Part shown: in pieces, positions 356-60,656 of the stretch | Layout: each line of letters opens with the position of its first letter | How positions within the stretch are numbered: position 1 is the first letter of the stretch | DNA from: a virus | Virus record (IMG/VR): IMGVR_UViG_3300045988_170943 | Span: 1 to 64,000 of that record | Strand: one strand, 5' to 3' | Length of the DNA: 64,000 bases | The notes under the pieces: model-generated | What the model was told of the DNA's origin: nothing | The model's input: the letters and a program-made list of their open reading frames with translations, nothing else | Databases searched by the model: none | Translations under genes and position numbers: made by a program

Positions 356-450
356 GCGTGTGAATGTGGCTCAGTTCACTCCTTTCAGGGTTGTATTGCT
401 GGTGTTGAGTATGTATGGTTGTCTCATCAGAACCGGAGAGCACAAGGCTG
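356..450 (+). promoter_or_regulatory. promoter-leader cassette copy (box GTGAAT-N8-CAGTTCAC, -35 GGTTGT, -10 TATGGT, leader TCATCAGAACCGGAGAGCACAAGGC)
   Basis: Shares the box, -35/-10 and leader with at least 18 other copies. A gene start lies about 25 nt downstream at 477. Confidence 0.55.
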
Positions 451-3050: not shown

Positions 3051-3154
3051 CAGACAGGTGCTAGGAGTCGCCGTCACGAGACACCCAGCAGTAGGCACTC
3101 AACCCGAGGACGGGCACTGCTGTCCCCTTCTGTGTGTTCTAGCGTGCCGTATGG

Positions 3155-3235
3155 TGTGATCCACATCACTTGTTCTGGGCTTGCGGGGAGTAGGGGGTGT
3201 GCTATACGCTAGAGTCAACAAGTCAAGGACAAAGG
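3155..3235 (+). promoter_or_regulatory. promoter-leader cassette, variant copy (GTGTGATCCACATCAC, CTTGCGG, TATACG, leader CTAGAGTCAACAAG)
   Basis: Matches the cassette architecture with substitutions in the box. Lies 30 nt upstream of the ATG at 3266. Confidence 0.5.
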
Positions 3236-3761: not shown

Positions 3762-4202
3762 CTACGTGCCCGAGTATGCTTTCACTGCGTCGGCCATGCC
3801 CGGCTTGGTGGCCTTGTACTCCTCACGTACCCCGTCAGGGTGGGCGACGGCGAGGACTCCGGTGCGGTCTGCCTTGAGGTCCAGGACGACCATGGTCCTG
3901 GCTGGTGCTGCCACGCATCTTCCGTCGTCTCCGACCTGGTGAGACAGGGTGGGGTAGTGCTTGATGTCCATGTCGCGCACGGAGAGGACGTGGCAGCCTT
4001 CCTGGGAGGCAAGTTCCCGCGCCAGTGTCTCCGCCTTGCTGTCCTTGTCTGTGCCCGCTGTGGCCTTCCTGGTGGCGTCCTGGTAGGTGTTTACGACTGC
4101 GGCCAGCGTGTCACTTAGGCTGCCGGTGTAGGTGAGGGTTCGTACCCTGATGTAGTCGCGCTTCTTGACGACGAGCGGCACGATAATGTTGACGAGAGTC
4201 AT
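3762..4202 (-). CDS. hypothetical protein (146 aa), co-oriented directly 3' of the TnpB-like gene
   Basis: The minus ORF has protein-like composition, whereas the overlapping plus ORF 3522..4118 is Cys/Arg-rich and looks like wrong-frame noise. Confidence 0.45.
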   Translation of the reverse strand: MTLVNIIVPLVVKKRDYIRVRTLTYTGSLSDTLAAVVNTYQDATRKATAGTDKDSKAETLARELASQEGCHVLSVRDMDIKHYPTLSHQVGDDGRCVAAPARTMVVLDLKADRTGVLAVAHPDGVREEYKATKPGMADAVKAYSGT

Positions 4203-4289
4203 GGCGGAATGTAGGCCTGTCTTCTTTGGGGTGTGGTGGGGCCTGGCGGTCGCTTATCGGCCCTGGACCCATGTGTGCTCGCGCACCCT

Positions 4290-5995
4290 GTTTTGTGAGG
4301 TTGTGTCCAGGGGCGGCATGTCATGGTATCACGCAACATGTCCGTCTCGCAACACTCGCTGACTAGGTTGGGGATCCCCTAGAATCTAGGGTTTCCCTCA
4401 CCATCATCAGCGTCGCCTCCAAACAGTTGTTGGAGGTACCGGTGTGTCCCTGGATTCCACCCAAGACAGTGACCGGCTTCGACTGCCGTGTAACAGCCGA
4501 ACTTCGCTCTAACGTTCTCTGACGAAGCAGTAAGCGCATTCTCTCTCGTGATCGGGATGACTGGGATGTCGCGCGCAGCGCAATCTCACGACTGGCACTC
4601 ACATCTCTGTTCAGTGAGAAACCACAAACTGTGCAGGCGCCAACTCGCGTCTTCGAGTTATTCGATACCTGACCGCCACATCTAGAACAGGTTCTAGATG
4701 TGTTCTTGGCACTCACCTTAACCACCTTCAGGCCATAACGCTTAGCGGTTTTCTCGATCCTGTGCTGTATCTCGGCATGAGGCCAGCGACCGCCTTGAGA
4801 GTCCAGCCAGGACAGGTTCTCTAAAGACAGGTGGGCATCGCTCTTCTCAGCGATTCCCACTACCTGGCTGGCGATACACTGACTGATCTCATGCTTGATC
4901 CTAGTGGCCTTAGCGCTGACTCTTTTCGCCTCGGTTCTGAGAACCTGGGCGTGAAAGTCCCGATTGTGTTTCTCACAAAGGTTTGCTCGCTCGTACAGAT
5001 GGGCGGCTAGAGTACGACGCTGCCGCTCCTTCTTAACTAGAGAGCCGATCCGTTTCTTATAGTTGGCGTGATACGGAGCAGACCTGTGCTTGTTCTCAGG
5101 GTCAAGGACGGTAGCGACGAACGGCTCCACCTTACCCAGGTCAACACCCATGACATTCTTGGTCTGACGAGTATCCACTTCATGCTCGATAGCGACATCA
5201 AAGACGACCCGACCTTTACTGTTCAGTCTGATGGTTGGGCGACAGACCTTGCCATCACCAAATCTCTCGCTGTTCTCTGGTAACCTGAGACTAATCTTGG
5301 TGAGACCATAAGTAGGCGTCTTCACCTGAACAACAACATTCAACGGATCGCTGTCGTCTCGAACTGCCTTAGGTGCGAAGTAGGTGTCACACACAGCCAG
5401 GTTCAGTTTGGCGCTCACTCCTGGTAGAGACGCTTTACGCTCACCTTTCTTGTGGTACCTGATCAGGTGAGCACGGATCATTCCACTGGTCGGTTGCGGG
5501 GCATCAGGATAGGTTCTTCTGTAGCAGGAGAGGATCTTTTCTGGGCTGGTCTCCTTAGGGTGAGTGTTCATTACCTGGAATAAACCCACTGAGATGGCAT
5601 AATCCTCTAGAGCGCCAACCGCATTGGTGACCAGCATCTCGTTCATGTTGTGCTTCTGAAACTCAAAGTCGTAGCGAGGCAGTCTCTTCCTGCCCCAGGA
5701 GTTCAAGGAACCAGTCGGCCTGTCACCTTTCAGGGTCTTCACTGCCAGGTCGTGAAACTCTGAACCGGCAAGCACCTCTCGTTCTGACTCGGCCATCCAG
5801 GTAACCATCTGAGCCAGATCGCGTTCAACCTGCTCCACGTCAACCCTGTTTTCTGTGGTGAACCTGTGCCTAGTCACCGTGTCATAGTATCTCACAGGTT
5901 CACCTCCTCTTGAATGGGTTGATTAGTAGCACCTATATAGTGTATTGTAGTACAGAGTGACTTGATACTGCAAGTCAAGGGATTGTAAAGGATCT
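4290..5995 (-). mobile_element. IS200/IS605-type element carrying only a TnpB-like gene (no TnpA); ends approximate
   Basis: Holds the TnpB-like ORF. The AT-rich 5' flank 5905..5990 carries the hairpin GACTTG-atactg-CAAGTC (5966..5983). The 3' flank carries the palindromes GGGGATCCCC and CCCTAGAATCTAGGG (about 4365..4400). Exact ends and target site are not determinable by eye. Confidence 0.5.
4363..5895 (-). CDS. tnpB: TnpB-like RNA-guided endonuclease (IS605 OrfB family; split RuvC with zinc finger), 510 aa
   Basis: Carries a split RuvC: GVDLGKVEPFV (RuvC-I Asp), LSLENLSW (RuvC-II Glu), a zinc finger CSRCG..(x12)..CTVCG, and NRDVSAS (RuvC-III Asp). No HNH domain is present, so it is not IscB or Cas9. 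Confidence 0.8.
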   Translation of the reverse strand: MRYYDTVTRHRFTTENRVDVEQVERDLAQMVTWMAESEREVLAGSEFHDLAVKTLKGDRPTGSLNSWGRKRLPRYDFEFQKHNMNEMLVTNAVGALEDYAISVGLFQVMNTHPKETSPEKILSCYRRTYPDAPQPTSGMIRAHLIRYHKKGERKASLPGVSAKLNLAVCDTYFAPKAVRDDSDPLNVVVQVKTPTYGLTKISLRLPENSERFGDGKVCRPTIRLNSKGRVVFDVAIEHEVDTRQTKNVMGVDLGKVEPFVATVLDPENKHRSAPYHANYKKRIGSLVKKERQRRTLAAHLYERANLCEKHNRDFHAQVLRTEAKRVSAKATRIKHEISQCIASQVVGIAEKSDAHLSLENLSWLDSQGGRWPHAEIQHRIEKTAKRYGLKVVKVSAKNTSRTCSRCGGQVSNNSKTRVGACTVCGFSLNRDVSASREIALRATSQSSRSRERMRLLLRQRTLERSSAVTRQSKPVTVLGGIQGHTGTSNNCLEATLMMVRETLDSRGSPT

Positions 5996-6234
5996 GTGTG
6001 ACTGCGGGCGACAGTTGCGTGTGGCCGGGGTTGATCCGCCGCCCCAGTGATCATCTGTGTTGACGGCCCCTGAAGTGCGGTGGCTCTGGAATGAGGGTTT
6101 TGCTCCGGTTTGTCTTGTCACTGACACCACTGGTTTCAGGTTGCGTCCATCACCTGTTGAGCACTAAACTTGCAGCATACGCACAGGAACCACCCAGAAG
6201 AACATGAGGGTGGTGCGCAACAAGGGAGGCCCAC

Positions 6235-19154: not shown

Positions 19155-19520
19155 ATGACCACGCAGCACATTGTACCCGAGATCGTAGAGAAGCACGCTG
19201 AGACCATCCTGTCCGCCATTGCCAGTGCCACAATCAGCGAAGTCATACTGCGCGAGTACCTAGACGATAGCCAGGTACGTGCCAGCGTCACACTCATCTT
19301 CGACAACGGGACCACCATCTCCATAGCCGACACCGTGTCGTCTTACCCTATCGCGGACACCCTGCCGGGCCAGCGAGTCACTGCCGTCGTGGCCTCCAGG
19401 AACGAAGATGGCTACTGGGGGCTCGATTACCGGAACGGCCGCTCATCCATCTTCCACACTGACGGCAACATCAATCCCGCCGATGCTATCACTGTCACAG
19501 CGGCCAGCGAGACCGCCTGA
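19155..19520 (+). CDS. hypothetical protein (121 aa)
   Basis: RBS GAAAGAGAACAACC. A T-rich hairpin follows at 19521..19560. Confidence 0.5.
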   Translation: MTTQHIVPEIVEKHAETILSAIASATISEVILREYLDDSQVRASVTLIFDNGTTISIADTVSSYPIADTLPGQRVTAVVASRNEDGYWGLDYRNGRSSIFHTDGNINPADAITVTAASETA

Positions 19521-27366: not shown

Positions 27367-27630
27367 ATGGCAAACAGGGCCAGCAGGCACAGCATGACGA
27401 AGTGGCACCCACGTAAGAGCGACGGCAAGGCAGTCAGGTGCGAGGCCGATGTCAGGAAGTGCCCAAGAACCAAGGAGGGTGAGGTGCACGTATACGCCAA
27501 CACCCCAGGTGAGGCCCAACGAAAGATCGACACCATCAAAGCCGAGTACGCCGGGGAAGGACTGTTCGCCACAGCATCCACCAGCAACCCCAGCACCACT
27601 GTCACCCCCCCCCAACACCAATTCTGGTGA
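27367..27630 (+). CDS. N-terminal ORF (87 aa, basic, CxxxxxC) ending at a C9 homopolymer; possibly fused by a frameshift to the kinase ORF
   Basis: RBS GAGAAGGAGACGAG before the ATG. A run of nine C at about 27603..27611 lies where it overlaps the +1 frame ORF 27449..28642. Confidence 0.4.
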   Translation: MANRASRHSMTKWHPRKSDGKAVRCEADVRKCPRTKEGEVHVYANTPGEAQRKIDTIKAEYAGEGLFATASTSNPSTTVTPPQHQFW

Positions 27631-28642
27631 CACTAAGCCACCAGCCCCTACCCCTGGCGGTGCCGCACCCAGTGGACGTGACAACACGCCTCCACCGGAG
27701 AACGACAACGACACCCAGGCGAGGAAAGCGTGGGAGCAGATGTCCCTCGTTGAGCAGGGCCGCGAGTGCGAACGCATCCTGAACGAGGCCATACGAAACC
27801 GCCAACCAATCGGCGGGCTAGACCTGTCACTACGTCAACAGTACGCCGAGCGCGCCCTGTCCCAGGCGATACGAGACGGCAAGATCACCAGCAAAATCTA
27901 CGCATCCAGTGAGGTCCCCGGCATGGAGTACACGAAGGAGCGGCACCTGGCGCAGCAGGAGATCATTGAGGACGTGCTCAAGGCCCACGACAAGGTACCC
28001 CGCGAAGGGAAAGCGGTCCTGTCCGGCGGAATGGGTGGAGCAGGCAAAACCACCGTCCTCACCCGATACCTCGGCATGGACACCAGCCAATACATCACCA
28101 TCAACCCAGACGACATCAAAGAGATCATGGCAGAAAGAGGCATGATCCCAACCTTGCGTGGCCTCACCCCCATGGAGTGCTCCACCCTCGCCCACCAGGA
28201 AGCCTCCTACATCTCCAGCCTCATCATGAAACGCGCCATCGCCGAGAAAAGAAACATCATCCTGGACGGCACCATGGCCAGCATGAAGTCCATGAGACGC
28301 AGAACCGGGCAACTTCGAGACGGCGGCTACCACCTGAGTGCCGTGTTCGTTGACATCACCCCAGAAACCTCCCAGAAGCGGGCCACATCCAGGTACCAGA
28401 GAGGCATGAGCAAATACACGACCTCAGGGGAGGGGAACGGTGGCCGTATCCTCCCCGCATCCGTCAACCAGAGCAACACGCCAGAGGACCCGACACGGTT
28501 CAGGTCACGCAGCGCAGAGAACCTGGCGGCCCTGTACGAGGACGGCACCATACCCAGCACCCCGGTCGTCTACAACAACGACGGAGACGCCCCACAGCCC
28601 GTAGCATACGACGACTTCGTTGGTAGGGTTGAGTATAAGTGA
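27449..28642 (+). CDS. P-loop kinase, zeta-toxin-like or AAA_33-like (Walker A GGMGGAGKTT); Pro-rich N-terminal region
   Basis: Walker A sequence VLSGGMGGAGKTTVL, followed by ILDGTMAS, fits the zeta-toxin and polynucleotide-kinase-like P-loop family. The N-terminal 80 aa in this frame are low-complexity, so the true N-terminus may come from ORF 27367 through the C9 tract. Confidence 0.55.
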   Translation: MSGSAQEPRRVRCTYTPTPQVRPNERSTPSKPSTPGKDCSPQHPPATPAPLSPPPNTNSGDTKPPAPTPGGAAPSGRDNTPPPENDNDTQARKAWEQMSLVEQGRECERILNEAIRNRQPIGGLDLSLRQQYAERALSQAIRDGKITSKIYASSEVPGMEYTKERHLAQQEIIEDVLKAHDKVPREGKAVLSGGMGGAGKTTVLTRYLGMDTSQYITINPDDIKEIMAERGMIPTLRGLTPMECSTLAHQEASYISSLIMKRAIAEKRNIILDGTMASMKSMRRRTGQLRDGGYHLSAVFVDITPETSQKRATSRYQRGMSKYTTSGEGNGGRILPASVNQSNTPEDPTRFRSRSAENLAALYEDGTIPSTPVVYNNDGDAPQPVAYDDFVGRVEYK

Positions 28643-30111: not shown

Positions 30112-30549
30112 ATGGGCATGTATGAGAATACCCCATACGGGCACATTCGCAACAGCACGAATGGTACGCTCACATGGGGGAGTGCCGACAGTGAAGTGAA
30201 CCCCGCCCTGGCTGGTGACCGTGACCGCATCAACCTAGACGCTGTTCACAGGTGCGGCACACTCAGGCACCTTATGCGTAGAGGCGGGTGCGAGATTAAC
30301 GCCGTGACGGTTGAGGTAGAGTGCTTTGAAATCATGGAGGCACTGGGTTTGCCCGTCAACTTCGACGAGTACGGCGTTTTTGTCACCACCCCCATGGGCA
30401 CCCAGTACCGTATCAACGGATGTGACACGGGTGGGCAGGTCGCTATCCTGGATGCGAGCGGACACAAGGATCCAGGCCTCATTGAGCAGGTCAGCCAGGT
30501 AGTATTCAAGATCACTGGCCGCGATGCTGTCTATTCCGCTCTACTATGA
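30112..30549 (+). CDS. hypothetical protein (145 aa)
   Basis: ORF track entry with an ATG start. Confidence 0.45.
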   Translation: MGMYENTPYGHIRNSTNGTLTWGSADSEVNPALAGDRDRINLDAVHRCGTLRHLMRRGGCEINAVTVEVECFEIMEALGLPVNFDEYGVFVTTPMGTQYRINGCDTGGQVAILDASGHKDPGLIEQVSQVVFKITGRDAVYSALL

Positions 30550-32064: not shown

Positions 32065-33126
32065 TCATGCGGCCCCCAGGGCGGCGAGCAAGGTTGTGAC
32101 AAGCACGGTCGCCCCATTGTAGGTGGCGTGCAACCCATAGGCGCCCCAGATGTGCTTTTGCTTCAGCACCAGGAGACTGTTGACAAACCCGACCAGCCCC
32201 GTCCAGATGACGATGAACCAGTCTGACACGCTATTGAACCCTTGTGCGTGGGCGAGCCCGAACCAGACGGTAGCGAACAGGACACCCAAGAACCTCGCCG
32301 CCCTGGGGTTCTTGATGCCGGTCTGGAACGAGGACAGGATCATGCCTCGGTAGAACATCTCCTCCAGTAACGGGATAATGAACGGGGTTGCCACATACCA
32401 GAGGAATACACGCCACCCGCCGGTGAGGCCACTCAGGGAAGCGGCCGTGGTGCTGGAGGACATCTTGACGCCCATGGTGACGAGCCCGTAGTTAGCCAAC
32501 TGGAGTGCCAACCACATTCCGGCACCGGCGAGCACACCGAGCCCCAGGTGTTTAAGGTTGAACCCTTTCACCTGTAGGAACTCCCGCCACTTGCTGACGC
32601 TCCCAGTGACCGCCGCTGTCGCCCCCACCATAACGGCCAGTTCCGCGACAGTGACCGCCAGGAGGAGACTCTGGATGCTGGCAGGGTTGCCACCGAGGAT
32701 AGCGACCAGGACAGTGACAGGGATGGCGGCGACAGCGAGCCACAGGAACGCCCCGTACCCGGTGATGAGCGCGGGGATACGTTTCCATCTGCTGCGTTCC
32801 GCTCGCTGCCTTGTCAGGATCAGGGCACCCATGGGGTCTACTGGGGGTATACACCAGGCCTGGGGTGTGTCTGATGGGGATACTCCAGGTTGCTGGCCAG
32901 GCACAAGGGGGATGGTTGAGGCCGGTGATGGTGTGTCTGATGGCGGCAGCGCAGCCGGGGCGACATCGACTTCTGACTGGTTGCGCGCTTGAGACACGTC
33001 TGATGGGGGCTGATTTGGTATCGTGCTATCTGACACTGGCTTATTCCTTAGGTGTGGGTTCAGAAACGGATGTACGGCAGAGAGTATCGGTGAGCGATGC
33101 CCTGTTACTCCTCGCCGCACCTGCAC
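32065..33126 (-). CDS. CPBP-family intramembrane metalloprotease (CAAX protease/Abi-type)
   Basis: Carries the canonical motifs EEMFYRG (EExxxR), FGLAHA (FxxxH) and HATYN (HxxxN), with multiple TM helices. The Pro-rich N-terminal 98 aa may not be translated; an alternative start is at 32832. Confidence 0.7.
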   Translation of the reverse strand: MQVRRGVTGHRSPILSAVHPFLNPHLRNKPVSDSTIPNQPPSDVSQARNQSEVDVAPAALPPSDTPSPASTIPLVPGQQPGVSPSDTPQAWCIPPVDPMGALILTRQRAERSRWKRIPALITGYGAFLWLAVAAIPVTVLVAILGGNPASIQSLLLAVTVAELAVMVGATAAVTGSVSKWREFLQVKGFNLKHLGLGVLAGAGMWLALQLANYGLVTMGVKMSSSTTAASLSGLTGGWRVFLWYVATPFIIPLLEEMFYRGMILSSFQTGIKNPRAARFLGVLFATVWFGLAHAQGFNSVSDWFIVIWTGLVGFVNSLLVLKQKHIWGAYGLHATYNGATVLVTTLLAALGAA

Positions 33127-45259: not shown

Positions 45260-46960
45260 CTCCTCGAAGTGCTGGGGTGTCGTTTACTTGCACTAGGCTA
45301 CTCGCCATCTACTGTTCCTGTCAATCATGATTCGAGCGAAGTAAGCGTATGACTATTCCTTGAGATAAACCGTATCTATTGTATTCCCAATAGGTAGGTC
45401 CCTTGTCGGAATTGTCGTGCCGCTGGTTGTCTGAAACCACTCCAGGTGGTCCACCGCAGAAACCCTAGACTCTGCGGGGCACATCCCTTTACTCACCTCC
45501 TTGGAAGGTGCAGCAGGAACGTCAGTTTTTGGTTTGTTCTGTGGCGCCTTTGGTGTGGGCCGGTTCTTCGTGCCAGGATGCTTGAGCGGTTTTACATGGC
45601 ACTTGGAGCGGCGGACACGCTTGGTCTTTGTAGCGTGCCGCTTCCGTGTCTGGCACGCCTTAGCGTGATTCACCTTCTGAGCGATGTTCGCCGCCGCATT
45701 AATGTCCCGATGGTGTGTAACACCACAGGTAGTGCAGTGTGGCTGGGAGTAGTTCTGCATGTCTAGATTCGACTGGCAGGCGTGGCACTTTCTGGACGTA
45801 TAGGCCGCATTGACTTTGAGGACCCTGCCGCCGTCGGCCTCAATCATGTCACGGGTACGTCTGTACACCTCGCCACGGAACCACCTACCGAACTTCATGG
45901 TGTTCTTGATATGGGATAGGTCCTCAAACACCACCAGAGCATTGTCATACTTCCAGGCCGCGTCAGCAACCTCCTGAGCAATGAGGATACTCAGTTCCTT
46001 ACGACGATTCGATAGATGCTCTCTGTGAGAAACCGCCTCCTTGTCCTTGCCTTTTCTCTTCAGGGAAGCGACCTGTCTGGCTCCACGTTTGATCTTGTTG
46101 CTCAGCGACCTCGAACGCTGGCCTAAAAGAGATCTCTCAACGACCTGTTTCTTCTCAGTGTCCCAGACGACGTAAGCGGCCGGATTGGCGACTCCGACGT
46201 CCACACCAATGACGTACCTGGAAGAGAACTCGGGGCGGCCAGGATCCGTCGTGCCATGGAACCCGAACATGACCCTGTTGTTCTTGTCAACCCAGACGTC
46301 TGGTACACCAGGCTCACAGCCCGGCTCTAGTAGTTGAGGTGGCGTCGGGAAGTGCAGTGTCACCCACTGACCCTGGACAACCATGTCAAGAGAAATACGT
46401 TCTGGTGTGACACTGAAGTTCTTGTGGTAGCCCTTGTCTGTAGCGGACAGGGCCAGACGAGGCTGTAGGGCCCTGGGTTTAGAGTCTTTGACGGTCCTTC
46501 TCCACCCAGCCGAGACGTAACCAGTGTAGTTCCCGGAAGCAACTCCTGCTCTGGTGGTCCAGGATCTTAGATTGACAACTACTTGCTCTCTGAACATACG
46601 TTCCAATCTGGAACTACCGCTTCTGAGCCGCTTCTTCACCTCACTGGGGAGAAACAGACCCATTCTCCGACCTGCCTCAGCGGGTTTGTATCTGTCGAAG
46701 TAGGTCACCAGAGCGAGGTTCTGCTCAGTCAACTCCCGTAAGGCATAGTGAGCAGATAACTCTGCATCCTTCCTGATACCGTCCAGGACTTCATCAAGAT
46801 CCAGAGGATCACCACTCTTGCTGAATGCAGCGTACGGCACCCTTGGGTATGTGCGAGACACAACAGTCTTAGACGGCATCCGGTGAGCCTCCTCTCAAAG
46901 AAGTCGTACGTGTGTATCCTAACACAGGATCAGTGAAGTATGCCAGTACATACCAAGACA
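45260..46960 (-). mobile_element. second TnpB-only IS200/605-like element; boundaries approximate
   Basis: Defined by the TnpB-like gene and its flanks. The ends are not resolved by eye. Confidence 0.4.
45353..46879 (-). CDS. tnpB: TnpB-like endonuclease (IS605 OrfB family), 508 aa, with about 100-aa basic C-terminal tail
   Basis: IGVDVGVANPA (RuvC-I), VVFEDLSHIK (RuvC-II Glu), a zinc finger CHACQ..(x12)..CTTCG, and HRDINAAANIA (RuvC-III). Unrelated in sequence to the first TnpB-like gene. Confidence 0.85.
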   Translation of the reverse strand: MPSKTVVSRTYPRVPYAAFSKSGDPLDLDEVLDGIRKDAELSAHYALRELTEQNLALVTYFDRYKPAEAGRRMGLFLPSEVKKRLRSGSSRLERMFREQVVVNLRSWTTRAGVASGNYTGYVSAGWRRTVKDSKPRALQPRLALSATDKGYHKNFSVTPERISLDMVVQGQWVTLHFPTPPQLLEPGCEPGVPDVWVDKNNRVMFGFHGTTDPGRPEFSSRYVIGVDVGVANPAAYVVWDTEKKQVVERSLLGQRSRSLSNKIKRGARQVASLKRKGKDKEAVSHREHLSNRRKELSILIAQEVADAAWKYDNALVVFEDLSHIKNTMKFGRWFRGEVYRRTRDMIEADGGRVLKVNAAYTSRKCHACQSNLDMQNYSQPHCTTCGVTHHRDINAAANIAQKVNHAKACQTRKRHATKTKRVRRSKCHVKPLKHPGTKNRPTPKAPQNKPKTDVPAAPSKEVSKGMCPAESRVSAVDHLEWFQTTSGTTIPTRDLPIGNTIDTVYLKE

Positions 46961-47179
46961 GGGAAACAATGTCAGGCTACAGTAGAACAGCCACAACTCT
47001 CTTAGTGCAGGCGATAACGGCAGGGACCACTGTGGCCCGCCTCACTTTACCCCCATAGTGTGGGCGTTGACTTCCTGGCTGCCCTTGTAGTAGGCTGGTT
47101 CCAGCAGAGCAGCCCTGCATTTGGTAGGGTCACACGAGCAGGAAGGCTAGGGGCGCAAGTGGCTAACAATGATGATGAC

Positions 47180-60141: not shown

Positions 60142-60200
60142 GTGACCCTGTTCACACCCCTACAGGTTGACGACTCCGGGCATGGGATGTCTATACTGGG
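60142..60200 (+). promoter_or_regulatory. cassette variant (GTGACCCTGTTCAC, TTGACG-N19-TATACT)
   Basis: The box and sigma70-like core lie upstream of the GTG at 60252. The leader diverges from the consensus. Confidence 0.45.
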
Positions 60201-60251
60201 GCCAGTTGGTGCGCATACACGCGAACCCACCATATTACTCCAGGAGGAAAA

Positions 60252-60656
60252 GTGTCCAAGATTATTCTCATCGTCAAGAGCATCAACAACACCGAGAAGC
60301 CGCTTGAGGCCCACGTTGGCGAGATCGACCGTGACGACCTGGATGATGCGGTCAAGGAGATGACTGACTCCAAGTATCTCGGTCGCACCTGGTCATCAGA
60401 CGATGCTGACGACCTGAAGAATGCCGCCGAGGACAAGGGTGCATACTTCATGGATGAGGCAGAAAACGACAGTGACTCCTACAACATCGTCACCCGCCAC
60501 TCTGACTACCTGGAAGACGGGGACGATGAGGTGACAGTGGTCATCAACTACACCTGTGGCGATGATCGCTCAATCGATGTCGCTACAGCGCGTACTGTGG
60601 CCACGTTCGACGGGGAGACCCGCGACCTGCTCTTCGACTACATGGCGAGTCTCTAA
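60252..60656 (+). CDS. hypothetical acidic protein (134 aa, GTG start)
   Basis: RBS CCAGGAGGAAAA before the GTG. Confidence 0.5.
   Translation: MSKIILIVKSINNTEKPLEAHVGEIDRDDLDDAVKEMTDSKYLGRTWSSDDADDLKNAAEDKGAYFMDEAENDSDSYNIVTRHSDYLEDGDDEVTVVINYTCGDDRSIDVATARTVATFDGETRDLLFDYMASL

Follow-up and report, generated by a model that had tools for sequence, protein, structure and literature searches.

How does the gene for a large RNA-guided nuclease come to sit, with no transposase beside it, in a viral genome in which hardly any other gene can be recognised? The question arises from a tnpB gene in the window, by which we mean the whole 64,000-nucleotide (nt) stretch analysed here (positions 1 to 64,000 of IMG/VR record IMGVR_UViG_3300045988_170943). 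A first-pass annotation, made from the letters alone, placed this gene in an insertion sequence (IS) lacking the transposase TnpA, and raised the possibility that the nuclease had been domesticated by the host element. Comparison of more than 80 related loci delimits a mobile unit of 1,659 bp, on the minus strand at window positions 4352-6010. Most probably this unit is a non-autonomous IS of the IS607 family that bears only tnpB and its guide RNA, the omegaRNA; it is a selfish mobile element of a well-known kind rather than a new system.

Ends, copies and insertion sites of the unit

The bounds of the unit, and the target-adjacent motif (TAM) beside it, follow from flank comparisons and from the joints between occupied and empty sites. 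Homology between copies invariably opens at window 6015/6010 and closes at 4352; among copies at other sites it begins and stops exactly there, and pairs of occupied and empty alleles show insertion to be precise, with no target-site duplication. The left end of the unit begins CGCCCGCAGTCACAC and the right end closes ..CCAACCTAGTCAGCGAGTGT; for family 1, as we call the unit with its close relatives, the ends are CGCCCGCAGTC.. and ..GCGAGTGT. The TAM, 5'-ACTGT-3' at 6011-6015 (minus strand), is the flank directly 5' of the left end. A logo of the five bases preceding the left end at 29 distinct sites gives A at 20, C at 21, T at 21, G at 27 and T at 28, and the motif is also present in unoccupied alleles. 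No such preference is seen at bases -6 to -10 of the left flank or at +1 to +8 past the right end, which are random.

Copies are numerous. More than 120 clusters of full-length relatives are 79-95% identical to the window protein; their contigs reach 408-423 kb, the longest among the matches listed being 512 kb, and another contig bearing the family measures 534 kb. Scans of IMG/VR and of metagenomes added about 60 further loci, with two to four or more copies per contig that stand some 20% apart. Among all loci, distinct flanks number 29 on the left and 41 on the right, for at least 29 insertion sites. The search for additional copies that the first-pass annotation had recommended as a way to define the ends and the TAM has thus delivered both. 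In one relative, L001, whose protein is 95% identical, the locus is syntenic with the window. In L002 (81%, on a 420-kb contig), the gene lies between flanks matching window positions ~60534 and ~60186; the two share a backbone genome in which the unit takes up different positions.

Six pairs of occupied and empty alleles were recovered. The joint of ACTGT to flank is exact, and free of duplication, in the pairs L018/L073, L018/L030, L020/L030 and L043/window. It is likewise exact in the pair L002/window, where an indel of ~348 nt lies adjacent, and the L017/window pair is more diverged, the window reading GCTGT. Three sites that are filled elsewhere are therefore seen empty in the window, at 30188/30187 (L043), 60534-60538 (L002) and ~19496-19504 (L017), in minus-strand sense. 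Because these three sites offer ACTGT or GCTGT followed by the flank, the window genome is a potential homing substrate for the L043, L002 and L017 copies. The window holds no solo ends and no copies resembling miniature inverted-repeat transposable elements, and all 13 exact right-end matches in IMG/VR have tnpB attached.

The non-coding left end (5896-6010, minus strand) spans 115 nt and was aligned across 35 distinct copies. In the window copy it contains a Shine-Dalgarno sequence, AGGAGG, at 5903-5908 and a -10-like hexamer, TACAAT, at 5944-5949. Most other copies have TGTGTTATAAT, an extended -10-like motif, compared with which the TACAAT of the window is weaker. Judged from these motifs, the left end may act as the promoter of the unit. 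The same 35 copies share no conserved secondary structure (alifold -5 kcal/mol) and no conserved inverted repeat or hairpin. The hairpin GACTTG-atactg-CAAGTC that had been pointed out in this flank does exist, at 5959-5976, but it is fully paired in just 3 of the 35 copies and lies within the promoter-like stretch. The picture of an IS with subterminal hairpins cannot be kept: the left end is without conserved structure, and the structure at the right end is that of an RNA scaffold.

Several observations on the insertion sites stand apart from the delimitation of the unit. Directly past the insertion site of L002 and L013, ~333-348 bp of the window (60186-60534) are absent from L002 (7556-7570) and from L013; the missing segment lies between short ATCCCC-like repeats and adjoins the region that a guide would match. 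Some flanks are chimeric: L011 joins the left flank of the L014/L042 site to the right flank of the L019 site, and L013 pairs the right flank found at the L002 site with another left flank. Such chimeras suggest that copies of the element have recombined, rearranging the backbone genome. The empty allele of the L028 site, at ~5662-5664 of L006, reads AACTGC where the occupied allele reads AACTGT, a one-base change of the TAM that may protect the empty site from cleavage or may be a neutral polymorphism. Finally, some flanks upstream of the left end hold GGCGACAGT / GGCAACAGT (~15-25 nt away in L019 and L056, ~20-30 nt in L024), which is the left-end start with its TAM (ACTGTCGCC) in reverse complement. 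Such pieces may be remnants of an inverted neighbouring copy.

The nuclease and its guide RNA scaffold

Pfam, alignment, AlphaFold2 and Foldseek evidence together identify the product of the unit as a full-length TnpB/Cas12f-like nuclease. Its open reading frame (ORF) runs from 5895 to 4363 on the minus strand, as annotated at first pass, and encodes 510 residues from a GTG start 7 nt past the AGGAGG. The split RuvC site read from the letters, with an inserted zinc finger, is borne out by an alignment of 23 family sequences that reaches relatives down to 19-46% identity. In that alignment D252 (GVDLGKVE; 5140-5142), E359 (LENLSW; 4819-4821) and D431 (NRDVSAS; 4603-4605) are invariant, as are the four zinc-finger cysteines C403, C406, C421 and C424 (CxxC..CxxC; 4624-4689), all on the minus strand. 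The three acidic residues align with the RuvC motifs of Cas12f and TnpB chains. The sole Pfam match is the Cas12f1-like TNB domain, PF07282 (E 5e-16; 59 bits against a cutoff of 26.3), which covers the zinc finger; PHROGs returns 'transposase' phrog_506 (E 1e-24), and the best sequence relatives in the PDB are Cas12f and TnpB chains (E 5e-13 to 1e-9). With the RuvC fold found and its catalytic residues intact, the protein is probably active in RNA-guided DNA cutting, as far as sequence can tell.

An AlphaFold2 model built on the family alignment has a mean predicted local distance difference test (pLDDT) score of 85, falling below 50 at residues 467-508. Foldseek places Cas12f at the top of the PDB (8dzj and 8j1j; E~1e-14, ~470 aligned columns, probability 1.0), followed by the TnpB of the IS607 element ISFba1 (8iaz; E 6e-9) and mimivirus Fanzor2 (9b0l), in keeping with the TnpB/Cas12-type architecture first proposed. 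Because the alignment to Cas12f spans ~470 columns, the N-terminal 190 residues that the profiles miss are, on the predicted model, the WED/REC part of a TnpB of Cas12f size, with no added domain. The protein had been described as some 100 residues longer than a typical TnpB, with long extensions at either terminus. It falls inside the published range of 350-550 residues (quoted in PMC12607003); the supposed N-terminal extension is WED/REC, and at the C-terminus the part that overlaps the RNA scaffold (467-508) is a tail predicted to be disordered.

The RNA scaffold occupies 4352-4530 on the minus strand, where RNAalifold, pair counts, third-position entropy, a folding z-score and covariation in distant relatives all bear on it. 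From an alignment of 41 distinct copies over their last 300 nt, RNAalifold returned a multi-helix structure: helices 2-8 span 4357-4501, and an optional hairpin lies upstream at 4519-4530. The scaffold lies wholly within the last ~50-60 codons (codons ~456-510) and closes at the right end, with the TAG stop codon (4363-4365) adjoining the 3' arm of the closing stem. Across the 41 copies, 98.2% of cells are paired at the 51 pairs; shifting the partners by 1-3 columns lowers this to 29-45%. At nine pairs both partners have changed (67 cells), a level reached in none of 500 shuffles. G-U pairs in the sense of the gene strand are numerous, which argues for an RNA of that strand and against a DNA hairpin. 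In the most variable hairpin (CCUCCAAC..GUUUGGAGG, CCUCGG..CCGAGG, CCUCAGG..CCUGAGG and others) the stem is kept and the peptide is freely altered. Folded alone, the window scaffold reaches -85.4 kcal/mol (z = -4.68).

Constraint on the RNA is visible in the gene as well. Third-codon-position entropy drops from 1.0 in codons 1-445 to 0.49 in codons 467-510, as is to be expected if synonymous sites are under constraint from an RNA. Distant relatives show covariation in the closing helix (CGCUGA:UCAGCG, CGCUAC:GUAGCG, CGCCAU:AUGGCG). Three loci from other metagenomes whose proteins are 30-46% identical (L087, L089 and L090) keep the right-end terminus GCGAGTGT or GCGAGCGT and the left-end start CGYCCGCAGT, with ACTGT, CTTGT or ACCAT as the TAM. 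Searches of Rfam return nothing in the window at gathering thresholds and nothing meaningful in 4250-4750 at E<=10, RAGATH-18 included. As a separate observation, the peptide S-x-x-T-R-x-S-x-x-V-T at residues ~467-480 (window ~4456-4497) is kept in relatives of 30% identity despite its predicted disorder. The motif coincides with omegaRNA helix 2 (UUCGGCUG..CAGUCGAA), and so its conservation probably stems from the RNA rather than from the protein.

A structured RNA at the 3' end of the gene had been anticipated by the first-pass annotation, which put it at 4200-4400. The covariation upholds the RNA, but not its place: the scaffold lies at ~4352-4501 (to 4530 with the optional hairpin), inside the ORF, and 4200-4351 is flanking DNA that holds the predicted guide (~4332-4351) and the start of the next gene. 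Similarly, the palindromes said to lie 3' of the stop are real (4370-4391) but are found within the ORF, upstream of its stop codon (4363-4365), and GGGGATCCCC is not preserved as a palindrome in other copies (GGGGATCTCC, GAGGATCTCC). The predicted guide segment, TGCGAGACGGACATGTTGCG (4332-4351, minus strand), is the flank directly 3' of the right end and is named on the strength of TnpB biology. Sequence past the right end is unconserved over the 41 sites; elsewhere it equals the sequence that trails the TAM in empty alleles. Expression of the unit would yield a transcript from which a scaffold followed by a site-specific guide could be processed.

Probable assignment to IS607 and the rival readings

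We file the unit as a non-autonomous IS607 element because tnpA is absent here and present in related genomes, and because its ends and TAM share features with that family. The absence is clear within the window: a Pfam scan of its 90 ORFs, PF01797 included, finds no Y1 or serine transposase, in keeping with the TnpA-less reading given at first pass, and no autonomous IS607 element is seen there. Related contigs of ~200-400 kb do carry such an element (L083 4900-7170, with L085 and L086 at other sites), in which tnpA is followed by a tnpB of ~510-528 codons. Its tnpA (L083 5001-5624, the same as L065 8537-9160) encodes a 207-residue protein with a MerR helix-turn-helix (HTH) and a serine recombinase domain, matching NCBIfam 'IS607 family transposase' NF033518 at 117.5 bits (cutoff 110). 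The tnpA-tnpB block measures 2.27 kb, is 85% conserved, and stands at three different sites, on four IMG/VR contigs that also bear TnpB units. A more distant TnpB, P0124, 39% identical to that of the window, comes right after an IS607-type TnpA (42% identity, E 6e-22) and overlaps its C-terminus. The gene for the 207-residue recombinase first came up in a tblastn search with a resolvase probe, as a resolvase-like gene 2.5 kb from one unit copy.

The window also holds a second TnpB-only element, at 45344-46993 on the minus strand (ORF 45353-46879, 508 residues), which represents a second family. In the C-terminal RuvC/zinc-finger region its protein shares 31% identity with the first, and the N-terminal family signature is the same. 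The left end measures ~114 nt, the right end lies 9 nt past the stop (..AAGGAATAGTCATACGCT), and the left flank shows the motif WGKCT. This element too is multi-copy, at differing sites in IMG/VR contigs, and hairpin covariation is visible in its 3' end. The tnpB of the autonomous block is 50% identical to this second TnpB, and the right end of the block (..CCAAGGTATAGTCATACGCT) matches that of family 2.

The ends themselves point to IS607. In the literature on this family, excision is scarless, with no inverted repeats or palindromic ends and no target duplication, and the TAM (TGGG) ends in the same core dinucleotide as the omegaRNA scaffold (..UCGG) (bioRxiv 10.1101/2023.11.20.567912). In family 1, GT ends the TAM at 27-28 of 29 sites and ..GTGT (AGTGT or TGTGT) closes 36 of 41 right ends, so that ACTGT is paired with ..GAGTGT; in family 2, both WGKCT in the flank and ..ACGCT at the right end finish in CT. 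By analogy, GT would be the crossover core of family 1. The likeness to the IS607 IStron TnpB of C. botulinum (TAM TGGG) extends to scarless insertion that leaves no target-site duplication, to ends free of terminal inverted repeats and hairpins, to a TAM that adjoins the left end on its 5' side and finishes in the same two bases as the right end and scaffold, to an omegaRNA that overlaps the right end, to the coexistence of TnpA-less with autonomous copies, and to relatives placed directly after a MerR-HTH serine recombinase. Unlike that system, the unit has ACTGT with a presumed GT core rather than TGGG with GG, a protein of ~510 residues with a larger N-terminal REC, no group I intron and no tnpA. 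With the best-studied IS607 TnpBs, the RAGATH-18-guided ones (ISFba1, 8iaz), it has in common the RuvC/zinc-finger TnpB fold and a 5-nt TAM. Those proteins average ~390 residues and recognise AGGAG or GAGGG as the TAM, and no part of their guide RNA lies in the coding sequence (PMC11061315); the unit departs from them in its ~510 residues, its ACTGT with the presumed GT core, a scaffold wholly inside the coding sequence and the lack of an Rfam match. Such differences are details within a known mechanism and leave the current understanding of TnpB unchanged.

Several results weigh against this assignment. No tnpA adjoins any of 35 family-1 left ends, and two IMG/VR scans found no empty allele of the window copy's own site. 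A strict sigma-70 scan of the window copy called no promoter. The NCBIfam guided_TnpB model scores 83.1 bits, under its cutoff of 100, and covers residues 191-440 alone, and the IS200/IS605 TnpB model fits better (E 5e-12) than the IS607 TnpB model (E 0.0076). The autonomous element, moreover, has a different left end, and its right end is like that of family 2 (..TAGTCATACGCT, core CT), not family 1 (core GT). Because its right end matches family 2, mobilisation of family 1 in trans by an L083-type TnpA is unproven; whichever TnpA moves family 1 would, on the evidence of ends and relatives, be a serine recombinase acting in trans.

The model scores favour the best-surviving alternative, that of an IS200/IS605-family (IS1341-like) TnpB-only element moved as single-stranded DNA by a Y1 HUH TnpA from the host or from elsewhere in the genome. 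Insertion 3' of a fixed pentanucleotide without duplication fits this reading as well, and the unit resembles IS200/IS605 TnpBs of the ISDra2 type and IS1341-like elements in being TnpB-only, in the overlap of its omegaRNA with the 3' end of tnpB and in the logic of TAM, guide and homing. An omegaRNA overlapping the coding sequence is in fact described as typical of IS200/IS605, whereas IS607 elements of the RAGATH-18 type keep the RNA outside it (PMC11061315). Yet the unit has no DNA hairpins of the TnpA-Y1 type at either end, the left end lacking a conserved subterminal hairpin as described above, and related TnpBs adjoin serine TnpA genes. No Y1 TnpA was detected, either by Pfam in the window or by tblastn in 470 kb of related loci, the latter a weak test. 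On balance we regard this origin as unlikely.

Less probable still is domestication, in which TnpB would serve a large host element as a nuclease aimed at host DNA or at rival phages, or as a TldR-like RNA-guided regulator. The abundance of the family, on contigs of 200-530 kb and with no transposase adjacent, would suit such a service, and the first-pass annotation had raised the idea. The evidence contradicts it, however. The position of the unit is not conserved: the same backbone carries it at many different sites, three of which are empty in the window, and one genome may hold several diverged copies. Ends are exact, the TAM is present, and the predicted guide is mere right-end flank, unconstrained rather than fixed. 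A TldR-like role is further opposed by a catalytic triad that is intact and invariant. The last alternative, a miniature type V CRISPR (clustered regularly interspaced short palindromic repeat) effector with a nearby array, takes its appeal from Cas12f (type V-F), which supplies the best PDB sequence matches and the closest solved structures, similar in size and aligned over nearly full length, and from the NCBIfam Cas12f2 model (E 5e-15, but 55 bits against a cutoff of 450), and is effectively refuted because the protein lies within IS ends, its RNA is the right-end scaffold, and the window has no CRISPR-like array or tracrRNA locus, offering only one distant tandem repeat (2.9 copies of 24 nt), with no family of direct repeats close to the gene.

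A possible life cycle, and the genome around the unit

If the unit is a non-autonomous IS607 element, its cycle can be sketched from known TnpB biology. Transcription from the left end would produce an mRNA whose 3' ~150-180 nt, which also code for the disordered tail, would fold into the omegaRNA scaffold; the scaffold would close at the right end and run on into ~16-20 nt of flank as the guide. TnpB with this omegaRNA would then cut alleles in which ACTGT is followed by that flank, whether an empty site from which the element was excised without a scar or a genome copy in which the site is unoccupied, and homologous repair would copy the element back into the cut, accounting for homing and retention. 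New ACTGT sites would require a serine-recombinase TnpA in trans, with strand exchange at the GT common to the TAM (ACTGT) and the right end (..GAGTGT). Cleavage by TnpB and its omegaRNA is in this scheme a prediction from sequence. Translation through the scaffold might also couple TnpB synthesis to guide maturation, which we raise as a possibility.

A bolder and rather doubtful extension is that, in large phage-like genomes, such units work as gene drives between co-infecting genomes, their guides cutting the empty ACTGT sites of competitors. Cut competitor genomes would be converted by homing or outcompeted in replication. Marker exclusion by homing endonucleases in T-even phages offers a parallel. 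If true, such a drive would explain the polymorphic occupied and empty sites, the empty L006 allele with its ACTGC variant of the TAM, and the chimeric flanks.

Whatever its role, the unit provides a fully delimited and apparently uncharacterised TnpB system, in which each part is defined: the protein, a scaffold of ~150-180 nt, ACTGT as the TAM and exact ends. It is directly testable as a compact genome editor, with a TAM that is neither G-rich nor T-rich. It is also a clean natural example of a guide-RNA scaffold lying wholly within a coding sequence, with a disordered protein tail and constrained synonymous sites as the result. The family was found in no cultured phage, plasmid or GTDB genome: GenBank phages contain no megablast match to the 5 kb surrounding the gene, tblastn of TnpB against phages and plasmids gave just distant TnpBs (23-33% identity, C-terminal half), and GTDB species genomes hold no relatives and so offer no pointer to a host.

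Two or three diverged families of IS607 type appear to be actively reshuffling a lineage of ~400-kb phage-like genomes that are nearly free of recognisable genes. Families 1 and 2 pile up in the same regions. For instance, family-2 right ends occur 1-2 kb upstream of family-1 copies at L021 (~1380), L023 (~775), L055 (~774) and, on the minus strand, L072.

The backbone itself is a phage-like genome of ~400 kb that is almost entirely unannotatable; its relatives in IMG/VR are viral contigs of 200-400 kb. Pfam matches occur in 4 of the 90 window ORFs (those of at least 69 residues): a Zeta_toxin/AAA_33 protein at 27449-28642, an Rce1-like CAAX protease at 32065-33126, and two further ORFs with DUF7448 and DUF998. 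PHROGs and Pfam return almost nothing for the large window ORFs, the window contains no tRNA genes, and a 475-residue backbone ORF has no tblastn match among phages. Inocles (GC content 24-32%; PMC12340149) and Jug phages (27-30%; PMC12363816) were considered as the backbone and rejected because of their mismatch with the ~55% GC of the window. One minor feature of the backbone is a 36-nt motif (GGTGTGACTCAGTTCACTCGTACCAGGCTTGCGGGG) present three times, at window 363-398, 1478-1513 and 3153-3188, with 69-100% identity, which may be a regulatory or promoter-associated repeat.

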